From Micrococcus luteus NCTC 2665 (lineage in GTDB: Bacteria; Actinomycetota; Actinomycetes; Actinomycetales; Micrococcaceae), in NCBI RefSeq assembly GCF_000023205.1, contig NC_012803.1, positions 2,010,001 through 2,042,000 of the forward strand: a stretch of DNA of 32,000 bases. Reading direction: 5' to 3'. Shown here piece by piece: positions 3,768-28,897 of this stretch (the first letter of the stretch is position 1; each line of letters begins with the position of its first letter). The translations under genes and the position numbers were made by a program. Under the pieces are notes generated by a model. It was not told the origin of the DNA, ran no database searches, and was given only the letters and a program-made list of their open reading frames with translations.

Positions 3768-4757
3768 TCACGACGCGAACATCCGCCCGCCGAGCCGAGC
3801 CCGGTGCGCCTGCACCTCGACGACGATGCGCCGGAAGTCGTCCCGTGCGTCGTCCACCGTGGACCAGATCTGCGTCCAGCCCGCGCGTGCCCACCCCTCG
3901 TCCCGCCACGCGTCCACGGCGACCTGTGCCGGGTCGAGGTGGTGGCCGCCGTCGTAGTGGACCGCCAAGCGCCACTGCCGCCACCCCAGATCCGCGTCCG
4001 GCGACCGGGCCCGGCCCGGGTGCAGCACCAGCTGGAGCTCCGGCTCGGGCAGGCCGGCGTGGAGCAGGGCCAGTCGCAGGGCTGTCTCCTGCGGGGAGTC
4101 CGCGTCCACCCGCACCAGCTCGAGGGCGGCACGGGCGGTGCGCACTCCCTTGAACCGCCCGGCACGCAGGAGCGCGGAGCGCAAGGCCGCCGTCGTGGTC
4201 CGCGGTGAGCGGCGCCCCTCCGGCGACCAGGGCCGGCGGACGAGGGCGTCCCCGGCCGCCACGAGGGGCTCGAGCATGCCTGGACGGAGCAGTGCGGCCA
4301 GATCCGCCCAGGATCGCTCCAGGCTCGTCAGGCGGATCCCGTGGAGGGCTGTGACGTCCGCGGCCGGGACGAGGCGGGCATGCGAGGTGATCTCCGGTCG
4401 GACGCTCGCCCCGCGCGGGTGCGGCCGGGACACCTGCACCGTGCCGTCCTCCGCCAGGAACGGCGGCAGCGGCACGCGGTGCAGGAGCAGCGCTGTGAGG
4501 TGGGAGGCCACTCCCCCGCTCGCCTCCACGATCGCGGCCGTCTCCTCCGGCGCGAAGGGAGCGGGCGTCTCGGCATAGCCGAAGTCCGCCCACGAGCCGA
4601 GGTGGTCGGTCCGGAACCGATGGACCCCGTGCGTCACGCGCCGGACGTCACCGCCGCGGACCAGTCGCTCCGAGACCCCGGCCGCGCGCAGGTCGCCACG
4701 GGTGAACGGCCGGCCGGTCTCGACGATGTCCGACAAGGGCAGGGAAGACGTGGCCAT
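3768..4757 (-). CDS. hypothetical protein: AbiEi-like N-terminal wHTH region plus DUF559 / Vsr-like endonuclease-fold C-terminal region
   Basis: 329-aa ATG ORF with host-like GC3. The N-terminus (GRPFTRGDLRAAGVSERLVRGGDVRRVTHGVH) and C-terminus (PDADLGWRQWRLAVHYDGGHHLDPAQVAVDAWRDEGWARAGW) match the pattern of the multi-copy actinobacterial DUF559 family as I remember it. No clear SD. Confidence 0.6.
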   Translation of the reverse strand: MATSSLPLSDIVETGRPFTRGDLRAAGVSERLVRGGDVRRVTHGVHRFRTDHLGSWADFGYAETPAPFAPEETAAIVEASGGVASHLTALLLHRVPLPPFLAEDGTVQVSRPHPRGASVRPEITSHARLVPAADVTALHGIRLTSLERSWADLAALLRPGMLEPLVAAGDALVRRPWSPEGRRSPRTTTAALRSALLRAGRFKGVRTARAALELVRVDADSPQETALRLALLHAGLPEPELQLVLHPGRARSPDADLGWRQWRLAVHYDGGHHLDPAQVAVDAWRDEGWARAGWTQIWSTVDDARDDFRRIVVEVQAHRARLGGRMFAS

Positions 4758-4878
4758 GCCCGTAACGATGGCTCAACCCGGCCGACCCCGCCCGCGCGGG
4801 AGCACCCACCGTGGACGACGACGTCGGCGGCGTCACCTGTGCAGGAGCCGTGCGTGGCCCCGGGCCACCGGGCACCCG

Positions 4879-4914
4879 CGCCCCGGCGCCCGCCGTTTCC
4901 CGAACGAAACCGCC
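4879..4914 (-). repeat. inverted copy (about 1.1 units, 2 mismatches) of the 32-bp repeat seen at 3644-3766
   Basis: The reverse complement of 4879-4914 reads GGCGGTTTCGTTCGGGAAACGGCGGGCGCCGGGGCG, versus the unit GGCGTTTTCGTTCGGGAAACGGCGGGCACCGGGGCG. It lies 8 nt from the stop of the Sir2 gene. Confidence 0.85.
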
Positions 4915-4922
4915 GGCGGGGG

Positions 4923-5867
4923 TCAGAGGCGGGCGTCGAGCCAGGCCAGCGCGTCGGCGACCGGGGCGCGCCAGCGCCAGCGGGCCTTGGCGTCGGCGCG
5001 GGTGGGGCCGAGGTTGATCAGCCCCGTCTCATGCCCGGCCCGCTCGGCCCGCAGCACGAACCGGTAGCCGCTCATCACCGCCAGCGAGGTGCCGACGGCG
5101 AGCACCGTGCCGCCGTCGTCGGCCATCGCCTCCGCGGCCGCGCGCCGCTCCGCGGGCACGGACTCGCCGAAGTACACGACGTCCGGCTTGAGCTTCACGG
5201 ACCCGCACACCCGGCAGCCGACCATCGTGAACTCATCCACCCAGTGCTGGTCGAGGGAGACGTCCCCGTCGGGGTTCACAGCGTACGGGTCGATCGCCAC
5301 CCGCTCGAGGTAACCCGGATTGGCGGCCTCGAGCCGCAGGTCCAGGTCACGGCGGGATTCGGTGGCCCCGCAGTTCAGGCAGGCCACGCGCGCCAGGTCC
5401 CCGTGGAGCTCGATCAGCCGGTCCTCCGCCATGCCCGCCGCGCGTCCAGCCTCGGCGTGCAGCCCGTCCACGTTCTGGGTCAGGATGCCGGCGATGCGCC
5501 CCTCGTCCGCCCAGCGCGCGAGGATGCGGTGCGCCTCGTTCGGCCGGGCCTGGTCCATGCGACGCCAGCCCACGAACGAGCGCGCCCAGTAGCGGTGGCG
5601 GGCGGCCGGGTCGTCCCGGAACTCCTGGTACGTCATCGGCCGGTGGCGGTGCAGGGACCCGTTCGGTCCCCGGTAGTCCGGGATGCCGGAGTCCGTGGAC
5701 ACGCCGGCCCCGGTGATCACGAGCGGGCGGGACTCCTCCATCAGACGCAGCAGACCCCGAGACGCCGTCTCGGGGTCCTGCAGCGGTGCTGTCTCATCCA
5801 CCACCCTGGCGATCGACCGCAGGGCGGCCTGGTGCCCGTCCAGGGCCGGATGCCGTGCGGGTGTCAT
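4923..5867 (-). CDS. Sir2-family NAD-dependent protein deacylase (sirtuin)
   Basis: Motifs GAGVSTDSGIPDYRG, QNVDGLH and HG, a Zn-ribbon Cys pair (CLNCG ... CRVCG), and VGTSLAV. Confidence 0.9.
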   Translation of the reverse strand: MTPARHPALDGHQAALRSIARVVDETAPLQDPETASRGLLRLMEESRPLVITGAGVSTDSGIPDYRGPNGSLHRHRPMTYQEFRDDPAARHRYWARSFVGWRRMDQARPNEAHRILARWADEGRIAGILTQNVDGLHAEAGRAAGMAEDRLIELHGDLARVACLNCGATESRRDLDLRLEAANPGYLERVAIDPYAVNPDGDVSLDQHWVDEFTMVGCRVCGSVKLKPDVVYFGESVPAERRAAAEAMADDGGTVLAVGTSLAVMSGYRFVLRAERAGHETGLINLGPTRADAKARWRWRAPVADALAWLDARL

Positions 5868-6652: not shown

Positions 6653-9247
<2,595 letters not shown>

Positions 9248-23898: not shown

Positions 23899-24549
23899 AT
23901 GGCCGAGAAGAACGCCGCCGAGTACACCGTCCCGGGCCTGTCCCTGAGCACGGGTCGCCGCACCGCCGAGATCCTCCAGGGCCGCCTGCACGCCCTCAAC
24001 GACCTGCAGCTCACCCTGAAGCACGCCCACTGGAACGTCGTGGGTCCGGGCTTCATCGGCGTGCACGAGATGCTGGACCCGCAGATCGAGCTGGTCCGCG
24101 GAATGGCGGACGTCGTCGCCGAGCGCATCGCCACCCTCGGCGTCTCCCCCGCCGGCACCCCGGGCGCCCTCGTGGCCGCCCGTGCGTGGGACGACTACAC
24201 GCTGGGCCGTGCGTCGACCCTGGAGCACCTGGCCGCGCTGGACCTCGTCTACGACGGCGTCGTGACGGACCACCGCGCCGCGATCGACGCCACCGAGGAC
24301 CTCGACCCGGTCACGCAGGACATCCTCATCGACCAGGTGGCCCAGCTCGAGCTGTTCCAGTGGTTCATGCGCTCCTTCCTGACCACGGACGACGGCCGCC
24401 TGAGCAGCGCGGGTGCGGCCACGGAGGCCGCCGCCGCGGGCCGGGTGAAGGACGACCAGGCCGCGCCCGCCCCGCAGGGCGCGCGCACGAAGAAGTCGGG
24501 TGCCAAGAAGGCCACGGCCTCGAACGCGAAGAAGTCCAAGAAGAAGTGA
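23899..24549 (+). CDS. dps: Dps family DNA-protection/ferritin-like protein with a Lys-rich C-terminal tail
   Basis: Start moved to the ATG at 23899, behind a GGAGAAGGAG SD. Dps core motif HWNVVGPGFIGVHEMLD. Tail ...TKKSGAKKATASNAKKSKKK. Confidence 0.9.
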   Translation: MAEKNAAEYTVPGLSLSTGRRTAEILQGRLHALNDLQLTLKHAHWNVVGPGFIGVHEMLDPQIELVRGMADVVAERIATLGVSPAGTPGALVAARAWDDYTLGRASTLEHLAALDLVYDGVVTDHRAAIDATEDLDPVTQDILIDQVAQLELFQWFMRSFLTTDDGRLSSAGAATEAAAAGRVKDDQAAPAPQGARTKKSGAKKATASNAKKSKKK

Positions 24550-24579
24550 CCGCGCGCCCCTGACGCGCCCCCGTGCCCG

Positions 24580-24611
24580 GAGGGCCCGACCGCACCGCCG
24601 GTCGGGCCCTC
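24580..24611. terminator. stem-loop after dps, shared with the convergent MMPL 3' fragment
   Basis: GAGGGCCCGACC / 8-nt loop / GGTCGGGCCCTC (12-bp perfect stem). Confidence 0.7.
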
Positions 24612-24626
24612 TGTCGCCGTCCGGGC

Positions 24627-24836
24627 TCAGGCGGCCCGCGCCGGCCACCAGACACGCGGGCCGATGTCCCGGACGAGCGCGGGGATCAGCAGGGAGCGCA
24701 CGATCAGCGTATCGAGCAGCACGCCGAACGCGACGATGAATGCCAACTGCACCATGAACATCAGCGGGATCACCGCGAGCGCGGCGAAGGTGGCCGCCAG
24801 CGCTACGACGGTGGAGGTGGCCACACCGCCCGTCAC
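24627..24836 (-). pseudogene. orphan 3'-terminal fragment (last 69 codons) of an MMPL transporter gene
   Basis: It translates to (V)TGGVATSTVVALAATFAALAVIPLMFMVQLAFIVAFGVLLDTLIVRSLLIPALVRDIGPRVWWPARAA. This is nearly identical to the C-terminus of the intact MMPL at 26063-28357. Similarity stops abruptly at ~24838, and there is no upstream coding continuation. Confidence 0.85.
24682..24801. repeat. left copy of a 120-bp perfect direct repeat (candidate crossover core)
   Basis: Base-for-base identical to 26118-26237 (offset 1436) by hand alignment. The flanks are homologous but diverged. Confidence 0.9.
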
Positions 24837-24845
24837 GTCTCCCTC

Positions 24846-24876
24846 TTGACATCCACCACACAGGGAACAATAGTGT
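24846..24876 (+). promoter_or_regulatory. sigma-70-like promoter candidate with an overlapping inverted repeat
   Basis: A perfect TTGACA (24846-24851) is followed by a 17-nt spacer and AATAGT, or a 19-nt spacer and TAGTGT. An inverted repeat GAACA-N4-TGTTC (24865-24878), extendable to ACACAG..AACA/TGTTCTGTGT, overlaps the -10. Confidence 0.4.
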
Positions 24877-24936
24877 TCTGTGTCACTTACTCAAGAGGCA
24901 GGCGGCCACGCTACCTGCCCCCAGTAAGGAGACCCC

Positions 24937-25551
24937 CTGTCGACCTGGAAGACCACATTCGTATCGACGCTCACCGGCCTGGCCGTGGTGACCACGACCC
25001 TCGCCGCACCGAGCTTGGCCTCGGCGCAGTTCCGAGATGACCAGGTGACCCACACCCAAGGACAACCCTCGACTGACAAGGTCGACGACGCTATGCGGCT
25101 CGTTCGTCAAGCTGAGATGGAGGACCCGGCAGGCTTCGCCCGACGGGTCGCAATTCTGGAACAGCTCGGGGACACATTCCGCCTGCCCCATGAGTCGACT
25201 CTTGGCTCCACCGACATGGATCGACTGGCGTTTGCAGCAACCGTGCAGGACCCCCTTGTCCTGCAGGGGCTTGTCGAGATGGTCTCTCGCGGAGACATTG
25301 AGATCATCGAAGGTACACATGGCGCCCCAGTCTGGATAAGCCATCTCGACCCGGAAGACCTGACGGCCTCCAAGGAACCCACCACCCAGGATCTTCCCGC
25401 GTGCCCCTCCGCATGGGCAGCTGCACTGGCATGGATCGGCGCAAACGCGCTCATGTGCACACCGCTCGTTTCTGTTCCGCCGGCGGCCGTCGGCTGCGCC
25501 CTCACGTTCGGAATCGGGGGGTTCATCATCGACGTAAATCAGGGGTGCTGA
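24937..25551 (+). CDS. hypothetical secreted protein with a hydrophobic 4-Cys C-terminal region (cassette ORF1)
   Basis: The ORF track start is GTG 24985. I extend it to the in-frame CTG at 24937, which lies 5 nt after a perfect AAGGAG (24926-24931) and directly after the in-frame TAA at 24925. The extension creates a classical signal peptide (..WKTTFVSTLTGLAVVTTTLAAPSLASA/QF). Codon usage is foreign. The C-terminus is ACPSAWAAALAWIGANALMCTPLVSVPPAAVGCALTFGIGGFIIDVNQGC. Confidence 0.55.
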   Translation: MSTWKTTFVSTLTGLAVVTTTLAAPSLASAQFRDDQVTHTQGQPSTDKVDDAMRLVRQAEMEDPAGFARRVAILEQLGDTFRLPHESTLGSTDMDRLAFAATVQDPLVLQGLVEMVSRGDIEIIEGTHGAPVWISHLDPEDLTASKEPTTQDLPACPSAWAAALAWIGANALMCTPLVSVPPAAVGCALTFGIGGFIIDVNQGC

Positions 25552-25563
25552 CCTCCGGCGAGG

Positions 25564-25965
25564 TTGATGACCCCTCCCGTTCTCAGGAATGAGGAGATCA
25601 TGGAAGTTTGGCGAATTCTCACCGCCGTGTTCCTTGGAGCAACTCTGGCCTCCGCCGGGGCCCTTGGAACCGCCCATGGGATCTGGGTGATCCTGCCTGC
25701 CCTGTGCGTTGTCGCGTTCCTCACCCTGGACTGGCGGGATCGCGATCGCCCTCGCCTGTCCACGCCACGCATGGCAGCCCTGCTCCTGGCCATTGCTGTC
25801 GGCTTGATGGTGCTCCCGCGCGTCGATTGGAGCCCGTACCCGATCATCCTGATCGCCTTCGCGGTGGCATCGGGCACCTTCACGTGGTGGGCGTTGGAGG
25901 ACGTCGGGGCCCGCAGCCTCGATGTGACGACGGCATCCCCGGGTGAAAGCCACGCGCACACCTGA
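25564..25965 (+). CDS. hypothetical small 4-TM membrane protein (cassette ORF2)
   Basis: It starts 13 nt after ORF1, at TTG 25564 or ATG 25567; an alternative ATG at 25600 sits behind GAGGAG. Four hydrophobic helices (VWRILTAVFLGATLASAGAL, IWVILPALCVVAFLTL, MAALLLAIAVGLMVL, PIILIAFAVASGTFTWWAL). Confidence 0.55.
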   Translation: MMTPPVLRNEEIMEVWRILTAVFLGATLASAGALGTAHGIWVILPALCVVAFLTLDWRDRDRPRLSTPRMAALLLAIAVGLMVLPRVDWSPYPIILIAFAVASGTFTWWALEDVGARSLDVTTASPGESHAHT

Positions 25966-25991
25966 GGTGCGGCGTGCAACCACGAACCCAC

Positions 25992-26031
25992 AGCCTGCGG
26001 CCCCGACGACACGTCGTCGGGGCCGCAGGCT
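25992..26031. terminator. 40-nt perfect hairpin between cassette ORF2 and the MMPL stop
   Basis: AGCCTGCGGCCCCGACGAC / AC / GTCGTCGGGGCCGCAGGCT (19-bp arms). Confidence 0.7.
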
Positions 26032-26062
26032 ATGCACCATGTGCCGAAGCGGAGGACCGCCC

Positions 26063-28357
26063 TCAGTCGACCTTCGCCGGCCACCACACCTTCGGGCCGA
26101 TGTCCCGCACGAGCGCCGGGATCAGCAGGGAGCGCACGATCAGCGTATCGAGCAGCACGCCGAACGCGACGATGAATGCCAACTGCACCATGAACATCAG
26201 CGGGATCACCGCGAGCGCGGCGAAGGTGGCCGCCAGCACGACGCCGGCCGAGGTGATGACCCCGCCCGTGACGGTGAGGGCGCGCAGCACGCCCGCCCGC
26301 GTGCCGTGCCGCGGGGTCTCCTCCCGCGCCCGGGTCATCAGGAAGATCGTGTAGTCGATCCCGAGCGCCACGAGGAAGACGAAGCCGTACAGCGGCACGG
26401 TGGGGTCGGCGTCCTCGAAGCCGAACACGTGCCGGAACACGAGGGCCGAGACGCCCAGGGCCGCACCGAAGCTGACCACGGTGGCCGCCACGAGCAGCAC
26501 GGGTGCCAGGAGCGAGCGCAGCAGCACCGCGAGGATGACCAGCAGCATCGCGAGGATCAGCGGGATGACGACCCGCAGGTCGCGCTGCGTGGTGACGTTC
26601 GTGTCCAGCGCCTGGGCCGCCGGGCCGCCCACGAGGATCTCGCCCGTGGCCGGGAGGTCCGCGAGCCGGTCGCGCAGGCGGGCCACGGTCTGCTGCGCGG
26701 CGAGGGACTCGCCCGGGTCCGCCAGGGTGGCCGAGATCAGCACGCGGCCGTCCACCACGCGGGGCTGCGGCTCCGGCGCGGACGCGGCGCCCGTCCCGCC
26801 CTCCGCGTCGAGCGCGCCCGGGGGCAGGCCCGCGGCGGCCTCGGGGGTGTCCGTGGTGACCGCGGCCTCGGCCACGCCGGGGTCCTCCGTGACGGCGGCG
26901 AGCACCGCCTCCGCGTCCCCGGCCGGGGCGAGGATCTGGGCGGGGGCGCCCGCGCCGGCGTCGAAGTGCTCGGTCAGCAGGGCCTGGGCCTGCCGTGCGT
27001 CGGAGTCGCCGAGCAGCACGTCCTCCTGGGCGACGCCGTCCGCGCGCAGCTGCAGCAGGCCGCCGCAGAGGGCGAGGAGCACGACCGTCGTGGCGACCCA
27101 GACGAGGCGGGGCCGGCGCGCGACGACGGCACCCACCCGCGTCCACACCCCGTGGTCCTCCTCGAGGCCGGCGATGGGCCGGCCCGCGCCGTCGCGCGGC
27201 GGGGTGAAGGCCCGGCCTCGGGCGGCGCGGCGCTCCGCGCGACGGCGCGCACGCTCGGGGGACGGGATCGTGGGCCAGAAGGCGGCACGCCCGGTCAGCC
27301 GCAGCAGCGCCGGCAGCAGGGTCAGGGCGGCGAGCCACGCGAAGGCCACACCCGTGGCGGCCACGGGGCCGAGGGAGCGCGTCGAGTTGAGGTCCGAGGC
27401 CATCAGGATCAGCAGGGCGAGGGCCACGGTCGAGGCGGACGCGGTGATCGCGCCGAAGGACCCGCGCACGGCGGCCCGCAGCGCCTCCCCGACGTCCGCG
27501 CGGACCAGCAGCTCCTCGCGGTGCCGGGCCACGAGCAGGAGGCAGTAGTCCGTGGCCGCGCCGATCACGAGGATCGAGAGGATGCCCTGGGCCTGGCCGT
27601 TGAGCTGGATCCAGCCCGCCAGGGCCATCCCGTAGACGGCCACGATCGCGCCGCAGAGCGCGGCCACGGCCGTCAGGAGCACGAGGACCGGCAGCAGGAC
27701 GGAGCGGTAGACCGCCACGAGGATCACGAACACCACCACGAGCGCCACGAGCAGCAGCAGCCCGTCGATCCCCGCGAACGCCCCGCCCAGCTCCGCGACC
27801 AGGCCCGCCGGACCGCCCACGTGCCACTCGGTGTCCGCGGCCACGGTGCCGGCCAGGGCAGGGTCGGCGGCCGCGGGGTCCGCCACGACCCCCCGCAGGT
27901 CGGCCACCACGTCGGCCACGGGTCGCTCGGCCCCGGCCGAGGAGTCGACGAAGGCCAGGAACTGCACCGCCGCACCGTCGTCGGAGGGGATCGGACCGGC
28001 GACGTCGGTCACCCCCGGCACCTCGCCCAGCCGGCCCGCGAGGTCCGCGAGCGCGGGGAAGGCGGTCGCGGGGTCCACGGTGCTCGCCGGGCCCACGACG
28101 ACGGCGGGCACGGCCTCACCGTCCTGGAACGCCGCCGCCTCCTCCCCCGCGCGGGTGGACTCGGCCGACGCCGGCAGGAAGGTGGCCTGGTCGTTCGAGG
28201 AGACGTCGCCGATCGCGCCGAACACGGGGCCGCCCAGGCCGAGCACGGCGAGCCAGACCACGGCGAGCGCCGCGGCCAGGCCCAGCCGCAGCCCCCGAGA
28301 GGGACGCCCCGTGGCGGCGGGGGTGCGGAAGGCGGACAGGTCGGGCGGGGTGGGCAT
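26063..28357 (-). CDS. MMPL family (RND superfamily) membrane transporter
   Basis: Start moved to the ATG at 28355-28357 (MPTPPDLSAF...). 764 aa with two 6-TM bundles and two extracytoplasmic loops. MMPL hallmarks FLPASAES and GIDYTIFLMTRAREE. Confidence 0.9.
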   Translation of the reverse strand: MPTPPDLSAFRTPAATGRPSRGLRLGLAAALAVVWLAVLGLGGPVFGAIGDVSSNDQATFLPASAESTRAGEEAAAFQDGEAVPAVVVGPASTVDPATAFPALADLAGRLGEVPGVTDVAGPIPSDDGAAVQFLAFVDSSAGAERPVADVVADLRGVVADPAAADPALAGTVAADTEWHVGGPAGLVAELGGAFAGIDGLLLLVALVVVFVILVAVYRSVLLPVLVLLTAVAALCGAIVAVYGMALAGWIQLNGQAQGILSILVIGAATDYCLLLVARHREELLVRADVGEALRAAVRGSFGAITASASTVALALLILMASDLNSTRSLGPVAATGVAFAWLAALTLLPALLRLTGRAAFWPTIPSPERARRRAERRAARGRAFTPPRDGAGRPIAGLEEDHGVWTRVGAVVARRPRLVWVATTVVLLALCGGLLQLRADGVAQEDVLLGDSDARQAQALLTEHFDAGAGAPAQILAPAGDAEAVLAAVTEDPGVAEAAVTTDTPEAAAGLPPGALDAEGGTGAASAPEPQPRVVDGRVLISATLADPGESLAAQQTVARLRDRLADLPATGEILVGGPAAQALDTNVTTQRDLRVVIPLILAMLLVILAVLLRSLLAPVLLVAATVVSFGAALGVSALVFRHVFGFEDADPTVPLYGFVFLVALGIDYTIFLMTRAREETPRHGTRAGVLRALTVTGGVITSAGVVLAATFAALAVIPLMFMVQLAFIVAFGVLLDTLIVRSLLIPALVRDIGPKVWWPAKVD
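26118..26237. repeat. right copy of the 120-bp perfect direct repeat, inside the intact MMPL gene
   Basis: Identical to 24682-24801. Confidence 0.9.
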
Positions 28358-28374
28358 GCCCCCGAGCGTAGGGG

Positions 28375-28398
28375 ATGGTTCGATGATCAAACAACCAT
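28375..28398. promoter_or_regulatory. AT-richer palindrome in the MMPL/MarR divergent intergenic region (candidate MarR operator)
   Basis: ATGGTT-cga-TGATCA-aac-AACCAT. 18 of 24 positions are palindromic, centred on TGATCA, between the divergent starts at 28357 and 28421. Confidence 0.35.
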
Positions 28399-28420
28399 GG
28401 GGCTGGCTAGACTCCCGGCC

Positions 28421-28897
28421 ATGACCACGCAGCCCCCCTCCGCCCCCGCGGAGCACCTCGCCGTGGTCCACGCGATGCGCGTCTTCAGCGAGAGCGCGGA
28501 GCACGCCGTCGACCAGGCCGGCCGCGGCGTCGGCCTGCACCGCACGGACCTCAGGGCCCTCGCGTACCTGATGGCCCGCGCGGCGGCCGGTGAACCCGTC
28601 ACGGCCTCGGACCTCGGCGCCCACCTGCACCTCACCCGGGCCTCGGCCACCGCCCTCGTGGACCGCCTGGCCGCCGCGGGCCACGTCCGCCGCCGCCGGG
28701 ACGAGGGCGACCGGCGGCGCGTGCTGGTGGAGCACACGGACACGGCCCGCCGCGACGGACAGCGCGCGTTTCAGCCGATGTCCCAGCGGCTGAGCGCCGC
28801 CCTCGAGGGATTCTCCGCCGCGGAACTGCGGGCTGCGGTGCGGGTGCTCGAGGCGGCCACCGCCGCACTGACGGACCCCACCCCGGAGGACCCGTGA
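28421..28897 (+). CDS. MarR family transcriptional regulator
   Basis: Winged-HTH pattern (LHRTDLRALAYLMARAAAGEPVTASDLGAHLHLTRASATALVDRLAAAGHVRRRRDEGDRRRVLV). Alternative ATG at 28397. Divergent from the MMPL gene. Confidence 0.85.
   Translation: MTTQPPSAPAEHLAVVHAMRVFSESAEHAVDQAGRGVGLHRTDLRALAYLMARAAAGEPVTASDLGAHLHLTRASATALVDRLAAAGHVRRRRDEGDRRRVLVEHTDTARRDGQRAFQPMSQRLSAALEGFSAAELRAAVRVLEAATAALTDPTPEDP

Follow-up and report, generated by a model that had tools for sequence, protein, structure and literature searches.

We analyzed a 32,000-nt stretch of Micrococcus luteus DNA (contig NC_012803.1, positions 2,010,001 to 2,042,000; hereafter the window, to which all coordinates refer) around two adjacent open reading frames (ORFs) of the + strand, here called ORF1 and ORF2. 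The gene order at the locus is dnaK (- strand), a Dps-like ferritin gene (+, ending at 24549), a 3′ remnant of an MMPL-family gene (-, 24627-24836), ORF1 (+), ORF2 (+), a GC-rich hairpin (25989-26034) and an intact MMPL gene (-, 26063-28735). The ORF1/ORF2 locus is collinear with that of strain NCTC 2665, and ORF2 is 100% identical to UniProt C5CD16. ORF1, of the Mlut_18840 family, comprises 204 codons plus a stop (24937-25551, stop codon at 25549-25551), and ORF2 (25600-25965) encodes a putative 121-aa membrane protein with four helices. A previous sequence-only reading of this DNA had located both genes on this strand, had divided ORF1 into three parts and had proposed that the pair might be a bacteriocin-like peptide with its immunity protein; the first two statements hold, and the third is weighed below.

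ORF1 is preceded by the Shine-Dalgarno (SD) sequence AAGGAG (24926-24931, +; read from the sequence), located 5 nt 5′ of codon 24937. Translation from this codon would give a protein beginning with a predicted Sec signal peptide (residues 1-30, 24937-25026, +) of the type cut by signal peptidase I (SPase I), ending in …LAAPSLASA, with cleavage after ASA and before a Q. The signal peptide was judged from sequence features alone: all full-length members of the family, and ORF1 when read from 24937, have a hydrophobic stretch at the N-terminus with an AxA-like site after it. No RR of a twin-arginine (Tat) motif occurs in the ORF1 N-terminus (MSTWKTTFVSTLTG…), and the ASA of the c-region is typical of Sec/SPase I. 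The sequence-only reading had likewise taken an SD-supported start with a signal peptide, and its SD and signal features were borne out; the start codon, however, is CTG, in contrast to the ATG of sister alleles, as discussed below.

Downstream of the signal peptide lies an acidic helical N-domain (residues 45-135, 25069-25341, +) with a net charge of -12 and a DPxGF..R motif, in which the family alignment revealed no invariant catalytic-type residues. It is followed by a variable linker (residues 136-153, 25342-25395, +), which is a candidate processing region, and by a C-terminal four-Cys module (residues 154-204, 25396-25548, +) of the pattern P-x-C-x3-W…C…C…D-x-N-x2-C. The AlphaFold2 (AF2) model of ORF1 has an overall predicted local distance difference test score (pLDDT) of 74: residues 41-120 score 81-98, residues 121-130 score 64 and the linker 53-57, and the module, where two helices are modeled at residues 157-177 and 181-197, scores ∼71-85.

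A phmmer search of 1.84 billion cluster representatives (E ≤ 0.001) returned 23 matches to ORF1, reduced to ∼22 clusters after one module-less match (P0027) was dropped. Members of known source are actinobacterial, mostly Micrococcaceae, and the full-length ones (186-242 aa) share the same layout of signal peptide, helical N-domain with the DPxGF..R motif, variable linker and terminal module, the last of which ends 0-3 residues short of the stop codon. Eight alignment columns are invariant in the family, including all four Cys, and every one of them falls in the module; since homologs from other genera keep these eight columns, the module is a feature of ORF1 far beyond chance. Three further protein fragments of the M. 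luteus cassette (P0037, P0047, and P0049) are deposited as hypothetical proteins of ‘Xanthomonas citri pv. citri’ on contigs of 229-460 bp, and are most likely M. luteus contamination of the Xanthomonas citri assemblies.

Searches of curated families gave no assignment. Neither ORF1 nor its last 53 aa matched any Pfam or NCBIfam model, and scans of 22 ORF1 relatives against the same libraries gave nothing above curated thresholds. For ORF2 the two libraries returned sub-threshold transmembrane (TM) noise alone, e.g., DUF4401 and Bax1-I, and a Pfam scan of 16 partner proteins from other loci again yielded nothing above curated thresholds. This agrees with the sequence-only reading, which had recognized no family for either protein and had suggested hidden Markov model searches as a check: no match to a characterized non-toxin family emerged. 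The best hit of ORF1 in a sequence-profile search of the PDB was an MBP-Tim21 fusion (E 0.0024), judged to be noise, and Foldseek with the AF2 model gave best E-values of 0.79 in the PDB and 0.33 in BFVD.

The last 51 residues of ORF1 contain exactly four Cys (C156, C174, C187, and C204), as the sequence-only reading had counted, and a single charged residue (D199). The Cys spacing is constant in 24 of 24 family representatives, being C-x17-C between the first and second Cys and C-x16-C between the third and fourth, with a loop of 10-13 residues between the two pairs. The Cys positions of ORF1 are also symmetric around one turn (156 + 204 = 360 and 174 + 187 = 361), so that, together with the two modeled helices, they fit an antiparallel helical hairpin stapled by two nested disulfides. 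A single four-Cys metal-binding site was considered and rejected, given that the Cys pairs would sit at opposite ends of helices of 17-21 residues. Likewise rejected was the idea that the module is a sorting signal for a dedicated sortase-like partner: the N-domain family attached to it is always the same and the partner lacks invariant catalytic residues.

Within the ORF1 family, module sequences share on average 47% pairwise identity, compared with 23% in the N-domain and 12% in the linker; in the comparison with the Auritidibacter homolog alone the difference is larger, with 73% for the module vs. 21% for the N-domain. This twofold stronger conservation of the module relative to the N-domain speaks against a simple anchor. 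Nor does it have the other properties of an ordinary double-TM anchor, i.e., TM-level hydropathy, a polar or positive loop and weak constraint: among the 24 representatives its helices have Kyte-Doolittle (KD) values of 0.3-1.4, its net charge lies between -3 and +2, and the inter-helix loop bears K or R in just two, i.e., there is no positive-inside signal. The alternative that the sequence-only reading had held to be equally valid, a surface protein with a double-TM anchor, is weakened by this combination of strongest conservation, loop composition and low helix hydropathy.

The same data bear on a non-antagonistic explanation, in which ORF1 would be exposed on the surface of the producer and anchored in its membrane by the hairpin, docked on the ORF2-type partner, the two forming an envelope complex with an accessory role such as sensing, adhesion or stress response. 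Such a complex would agree with the hydropathy of the loop plus helix 2, which over a 19-residue window (KD 1.3-2.1) is high enough for a membrane, with the strict linkage of the two genes, with the co-diversification of module and partner subtypes described below, and with the lack of a match to any toxin-like family. It would, however, require an anchor twice as conserved as the ectodomain, and docked on a partner that is itself barely conserved and shows no detectable homology between subfamilies; all four Cys are invariant, even the pair that would face the cytoplasm, and the loop lacks a positive-inside signal. On balance, and taking into account the mobile settings and the decay pattern reported further on, we regard this explanation, the chief rival of a toxin, as somewhat unlikely.

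The maximal ORF2 frame, starting at TTG 25564, encodes 133 aa, which was the length given in the sequence-only reading. Since the gene callers and the Auritidibacter ortholog agree on it, ATG 25600, preceded by GAGGAG, is most likely the start, so that the predicted product is the conserved 121-aa form; the four hydrophobic helices of that reading were recovered. They appear as hydropathy peaks of 1.5-2.1, the loop that joins TM2 to TM3 is rich in Arg, and the single-sequence AF2 model places helices at residues 2-22, 27-47, 54-74, and 80-111 with low confidence (pLDDT 64). Partner proteins across the family have almost no conserved residues, and the subtypes of the module co-diversify with those of the partner. 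The possibility that ORF2 oxidizes the ORF1 Cys in the manner of 4-TM enzymes like DsbB/VKOR was rejected, the partners having no conserved Cys. An hhalign link of 98% probability between window-type and Arthrobacter-type partners was discarded after we noticed that both profiles shared a sequence.

The linkage between the two genes was then followed in other organisms. A genome scan, limited to one genome per species, identified 17 loci, all in Micrococcaceae (Micrococcus, Auritidibacter, Arthrobacter, Paenarthrobacter, and Sinomonas), and Nesterenkonia proved to be a further genus with the same order of ORF1 followed by its partner. In the Micrococcaceae genome loci a TM-rich ORF lies immediately 3′ on the same strand in 19/19 module-bearing ORFs; these partners span 117-181 aa as maximal ORFs, have 2-4 hydropathy peaks above threshold and, where the start is clear, are separated from ORF1 by a gap of -9 to +61 nt. 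A metagenome scan with a second subfamily added 35 further loci, and here a 2-TM ORF of ∼66-85 aa is found immediately 3′ of 17 of the 18 intact ORF1-like genes, at +10 to +20 nt in cases with a clear start, while six maximal ORFs of the type found at locus L059 (L plus a number denotes our locus identifiers) overlap ORF1. The co-occurrence survey that the sequence-only reading had asked for thus returned a small polytopic membrane ORF after ORF1 in nearly every case. No neighbor of the pair is conserved between genera in the 17 other loci.

Auritidibacter carries two divergently oriented paralogous ORF1/partner pairs. In Auritidibacter ignavus CP125879 (L001) they lie at 4213-5250 (-) and 8001-9043 (+), ∼2.7 kb apart, with a resolvase and an ISL3 transposase in between that are absent from L002; the NCBI record has no annotation for the second pair's partner of 121 aa.

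Several of the loci are on, or next to, mobile elements. On pRGI00580 (L045, HG796345.1), a circular plasmid of 3.5 kb with 50% GC, the gene pair is the sole cargo, the rest of the plasmid being a putative replication gene without a Pfam match and a pair of ParE and ribbon-helix-helix (RHH) genes. A Logan contig of 2.8 kb with 57% GC (SRR23527606_11245, L044) consists of the pair and a PF03090 replicase. On both molecules the partner is a 2-TM ORF of 76-92 aa. In Nesterenkonia one insertion sequence (IS) element stands beside the pair in three different contexts, and in Sinomonas (L021) a DDE transposase adjoins it. Carriage as the sole cargo of tiny plasmids and association with IS elements speak against an envelope complex of the kind outlined above.

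These small plasmids, IS neighbors and, in Micrococcus, a transferable cassette, together with the patchy distribution of the pair, could also mean that it serves mobile elements in another way, through entry or surface exclusion, blocking of phage receptors, or an export-dependent form of plasmid addiction. We consider this quite unlikely. The pair matched nothing in PADLOC or PHROG, no relatives were found in the 2.9 million viral contigs of IMG/VR, and the plasmids that carry it cannot be mobilized and are not large enough for exclusion linked to conjugation. The PHROG and IMG/VR results also led to the rejection of a phage origin.

In the window the pair lies in a lower-GC insert of 1219 bp (24838-26056, +), with 60-68% GC in the composition profile vs. 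70-83% in the flanks, which contains ORF1 and ORF2 only. No integrase or recombinase gene lies within the insert, which is at odds with an integrase-borne genomic island. It is bounded by two copies of a 217-nt direct repeat: the left copy (24621-24837, -) holds the displaced 69-codon MMPL 3′ remnant (24627-24836), with a Pfam MMPL match of 3.4e-9 and 90% identity to the right copy (26057-26273, -), which forms the current 3′ end of the intact MMPL gene. A promoter-like site, TTGACA-17-AATAGT (24846-24874, +), begins 8 nt into the insert, ∼60 nt 5′ of ORF1; it matches at 10/12 positions and is the sole match across 24550-26100, where shuffled sequences average 0.2 matches. At the other end, between the convergent ORF2 and MMPL genes, the GC-rich hairpin (25989-26034) has arms of 22 nt that are 95% complementary, and the 103-nt stretch that includes it (25960-26062) folds with -58.4 kcal/mol (z = -5.2); it is likely to act as a bidirectional terminator for both genes. 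With one promoter-like site and one strong hairpin after ORF2, the insert therefore appears to be a single transcription unit. The gene targeted by the cassette is one of two MMPL-family genes present here, with a divergent MarR-type regulator between them (L004, 9963 onward), and with the cassette the MMPL protein ends in …PKVWWPAKVD instead of …PRVWWPARAA.

Even where the Dps protein is identical, M. luteus strains differ in the presence of the insert: some carry it, while in others dps is followed directly by the MMPL gene (L031, L034, and L036). All carriers share an insert of 99.4-100% identity. Between the repeat copies there are 22 differing positions; at the first 12 the empty-site allele agrees with the left copy and at the last 10 with the right one, so that the copies are reciprocal chimeras of that allele. 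Between the two sets of differences lies an identical 120-bp core (24682-24801 in the left copy, 26118-26237 in the right). Reciprocal chimeras around such a core are consistent with entry by a single crossover between the chromosome and a 1436-bp element that would have brought its own diverged MMPL 3′ fragment.

The insert is also present in the lineage of ‘M. antarcticus’ ABH-515 (L006, L007, and L014), as part of a tract whose ends lie within dps (24279) and within the right repeat (26228). Over this tract identity to the window is 96-100% per 50-nt window, with five mismatches within the insert, whereas the flanks are just 86% (left) and 75% (right) identical. A near-identical tract between diverged flanks indicates a recent transfer of the cassette between Micrococcus species by flanking homologous recombination.

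One of the allelic differences concerns the ORF1 start. At codon 24937 the window, NCTC 2665 and L005 read CTG, and L006, L007, and L014 read ATG. ATG is presumably the ancestral codon, and the window allele would therefore be a start-codon mutant, possibly expressed only weakly. The NCBI annotation of ORF1 (Mlut_18840) is a 188-aa form from the next in-frame start, GTG 24985, which deletes the n-region and most of the h-region and leaves no usable signal peptide. Taken further, and in view of the frameshifted alleles found in other datasets, the CTG codon could mean that the copy in the window is decaying and has in essence lost its function, ORF1 failing to be made or exported and the cassette persisting by hitch-hiking alone. 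Such a degree of decay seems very doubtful to us: the reading frame, the SD, the promoter-like site and every invariant residue are preserved, the insert is almost identical across its carriers, and it has been exchanged between Micrococcus species, the allele compared there being the one with ATG. The argument, moreover, concerns the window allele alone and says nothing about what the family is; it can be reconciled with a toxin and immunity pair, of which this allele may act chiefly as an immunity carrier.

Lesions in ORF1 beside an intact partner are seen repeatedly. They include the change of the first Cys to Tyr (L015), a frameshift in the module (L027), stops in the N-terminal part (L029), the deletion of ∼150 codons (L030) and, in M. 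luteus, the CTG start and the frameshift or deletion variants P0002-P0004. In one metagenome population (L059-L079, contigs ERZ77xxxx), whose members are 96-98% identical, intact and damaged ORF1 alleles are found side by side: the first Cys is changed to Arg in 4 loci, and frameshifts of at least two types fall at residues ∼163-171 in 7-8 loci, while the 66-aa partner ORF is intact in 18/19. The clustering of these frameshifts has a mutational hotspot or phase variation as possible explanations. The reverse case, i.e., an intact ORF1 beside a broken partner, was not seen at any locus. All in all there are at least ∼10 apparently independent events. Retention of the partner when ORF1 decays would be unexpected if both were needed as subunits of an envelope complex, and a benefit to mobile elements by exclusion, receptor blocking or addiction gives no reason for the preferential loss of ORF1.

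We infer from these observations that ORF1 and ORF2 may constitute a Sec-exported membrane-active toxin, or pro-toxin, and its membrane immunity protein, a reading to which we assign a probability of roughly 0.5. The insert would then be a self-contained two-gene conflict module. Sec would export ORF1 and the signal peptide would be cleaved off; outside the cell the four invariant Cys would form the nested disulfides C156-C204 and C174-C187, stapling the last ∼50 residues into an uncharged antiparallel helical hairpin rich in Ala, Gly, and Trp. The acidic N-domain might hold this hydrophobic hairpin in a soluble or inactive state, possibly until a cut within the variable linker. As the active end of the protein, the hairpin would insert into the cytoplasmic membrane of related bacteria lacking the cassette, with membrane damage or the block of a conserved membrane target as the effect, and the producer would be protected by the co-transcribed ORF2, a small polytopic membrane protein.

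We favor the toxin and immunity reading because the pair is an autonomous two-gene unit of patchy distribution, carried by plasmids, IS-associated loci and a cassette; because the terminal module is the constrained part of ORF1 and its four invariant Cys all need an oxidizing compartment; and because the partners evolve fast and have no demonstrable homology between subfamilies, the putative toxin being lost where the partner is retained. A predicted Sec signal peptide is also a trait of Sec-dependent, unmodified (class II-like) bacteriocins with a linked immunity gene, and the conserved adjacency of a small TM protein, together with one promoter-like site and one likely terminator, would be in keeping with the co-transcribed immunity gene of such systems. 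Of the bacteriocin and immunity proposal in the sequence-only reading, the linkage, the constraint on the module, the mobility and the decay of ORF1 are in favor; neither a relation to halocin C8 nor homology of the partners across subfamilies was supported.

Several observations weigh against a toxin. Corrected for gene length, the asymmetric decay has no more than modest significance: ORF1 is 1.7-3 times as long as the partner, and if lesions are proportional to length, ∼10 events all falling in ORF1 would have P ∼0.03, a rough estimate in which some events may be non-independent. The module is neutral or slightly anionic, unlike most membrane-active bacteriocins, which are cationic, and the hydropathy of its loop plus helix 2 (KD 1.3-2.1) makes anchoring in the producer's own membrane physically plausible. 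No exporter, protease or modification genes accompany the pair, and no processing site is evident. Window-type and Arthrobacter-type partners have no demonstrable homology (hhalign probability 10%), the distant loci L080 and L051/L055 have no obvious partner, the AF2 model of ORF1 is of moderate confidence, the window allele starts with CTG, and a literature search found no publication on the ORF1/ORF2 genes.

A broader proposal, which we put forward tentatively and with less confidence, is that ORF1 founds an unrecognized class of actinobacterial bacteriocins: Sec-exported, with a long uncharged hairpin closed by two nested disulfides, accompanied by rapidly replaced, non-homologous small-TM immunity proteins, and spread in Micrococcus as a recombinase-free cassette of 1.4 kb, whose borrowed 217-bp MMPL 3′ end would serve as a homology arm for host recombination between species. 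If the toxin and immunity reading is right, there would be a new bacteriocin fold and family in the Micrococcaceae, bacteria of skin, soil, and plants such as Micrococcus and Arthrobacter, and an unusually simple one, in which two genes without modification or export machinery would lend themselves to easy expression and engineering. Alleles with a dead toxin and an intact partner, together with presence and absence of the insert within one species, would offer a natural system for the dynamics of producers, immune cheaters, and sensitive strains. The cassette is also a clean case of a gene pair inserted by one crossover via a borrowed gene end, and afterwards swept over a species boundary through flanking homologous recombination. 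Should the reading be wrong, the pair would still be a conserved, unclassified association of a secreted protein and a membrane protein that merits the definition of a family.

Among known systems, PAMP of Propionibacterium jensenii is described as the active C-terminal peptide of a precursor of 198 aa, the first 27 of which are the signal peptide, and propionicin F as having immunity conferred by membrane proteins encoded by pcfI (PMC5756557). PAMP, a protease-activated antimicrobial peptide, is like ORF1 in its actinobacterial host and in being a pre-pro-protein of ∼200 aa with a Sec signal peptide. To our knowledge it is not described as a disulfide-stapled hairpin with four Cys, and we know of no adjacent small-TM partner. 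Propionicin F, on the other hand, requires a radical S-adenosylmethionine (SAM) enzyme, a protease and an ATP-binding cassette (ABC) transporter, whereas the ORF1/ORF2 loci have none of these. We liken the pair to PAMP by description only, as a possible long-precursor bacteriocin, and claim no membership in the PAMP group.

The precursor of halocin C8 (ProC8/HalI) consists of an N-terminal domain and a C-terminal peptide of 76 aa that is hydrophobic, contains Cys and is set free once exported (bioRxiv 10.64898/2026.07.27.741052). ORF1 resembles it in this layout, by analogy only. Halocin C8 is exported by Tat, while ORF1 has a Sec-type signal; its immunity resides in the N-terminal part of the same precursor, in contrast to the separate membrane protein proposed here; and its neighbors are ABC transporters and a regulator. 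The sequence-only reading had mentioned halocin C8 as an analogy, and as a relationship this likeness falls: neither ORF1 (E ≤ 1) nor its relatives (E ≤ 0.1) matched the halocin C8 models TIGR04449 and Hac8_like_N (PF22862), on the assumption that our copies of the libraries include them.

Glycocins such as sublancin 168 and glycocin F are described as helix-loop-helix hairpins with two nested disulfides (PMC12457901, PMC12139839). The ORF1 module would share this nested-disulfide topology, as suggested for ORF1 by its symmetric Cys spacing. Glycocins are S- or O-glycosylated RiPPs (peptides made on ribosomes and modified after translation) of ∼40 aa with a C-x6-C spacing, and they depend on leader peptides, a glycosyltransferase and an ABC exporter. 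ORF1 differs from them in the C-x17-C/C-x16-C spacing and in carrying the module at the end of a Sec protein of 200 aa. Glycosyltransferase, thiol-disulfide oxidoreductase and peptidase-ABC exporter genes are absent from the cassette, and the 17 other loci have no conserved neighbors that could supply them. The ORF1/ORF2 pair thus belongs neither to PAMP and propionicin F, nor to halocin C8, nor to the glycocins.

Small immunity proteins of bacteriocins that target membranes, such as Cvi of microcin V, MceB of microcin E492 and those of pore-forming colicins and circular bacteriocins, have 2-4 TM helices in ∼50-180 aa. Genes for such membrane immunity proteins lie next to the toxin gene, are co-transcribed with it and diverge fast; when the toxin has been lost, they often persist as orphan copies. 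ORF2 has no sequence similarity to these proteins in the Pfam scans. In size, topology, position, divergence and retention, ORF2 and its positional equivalents nonetheless fit the pattern of small membrane immunity proteins, and by this analogy they would protect the producer.

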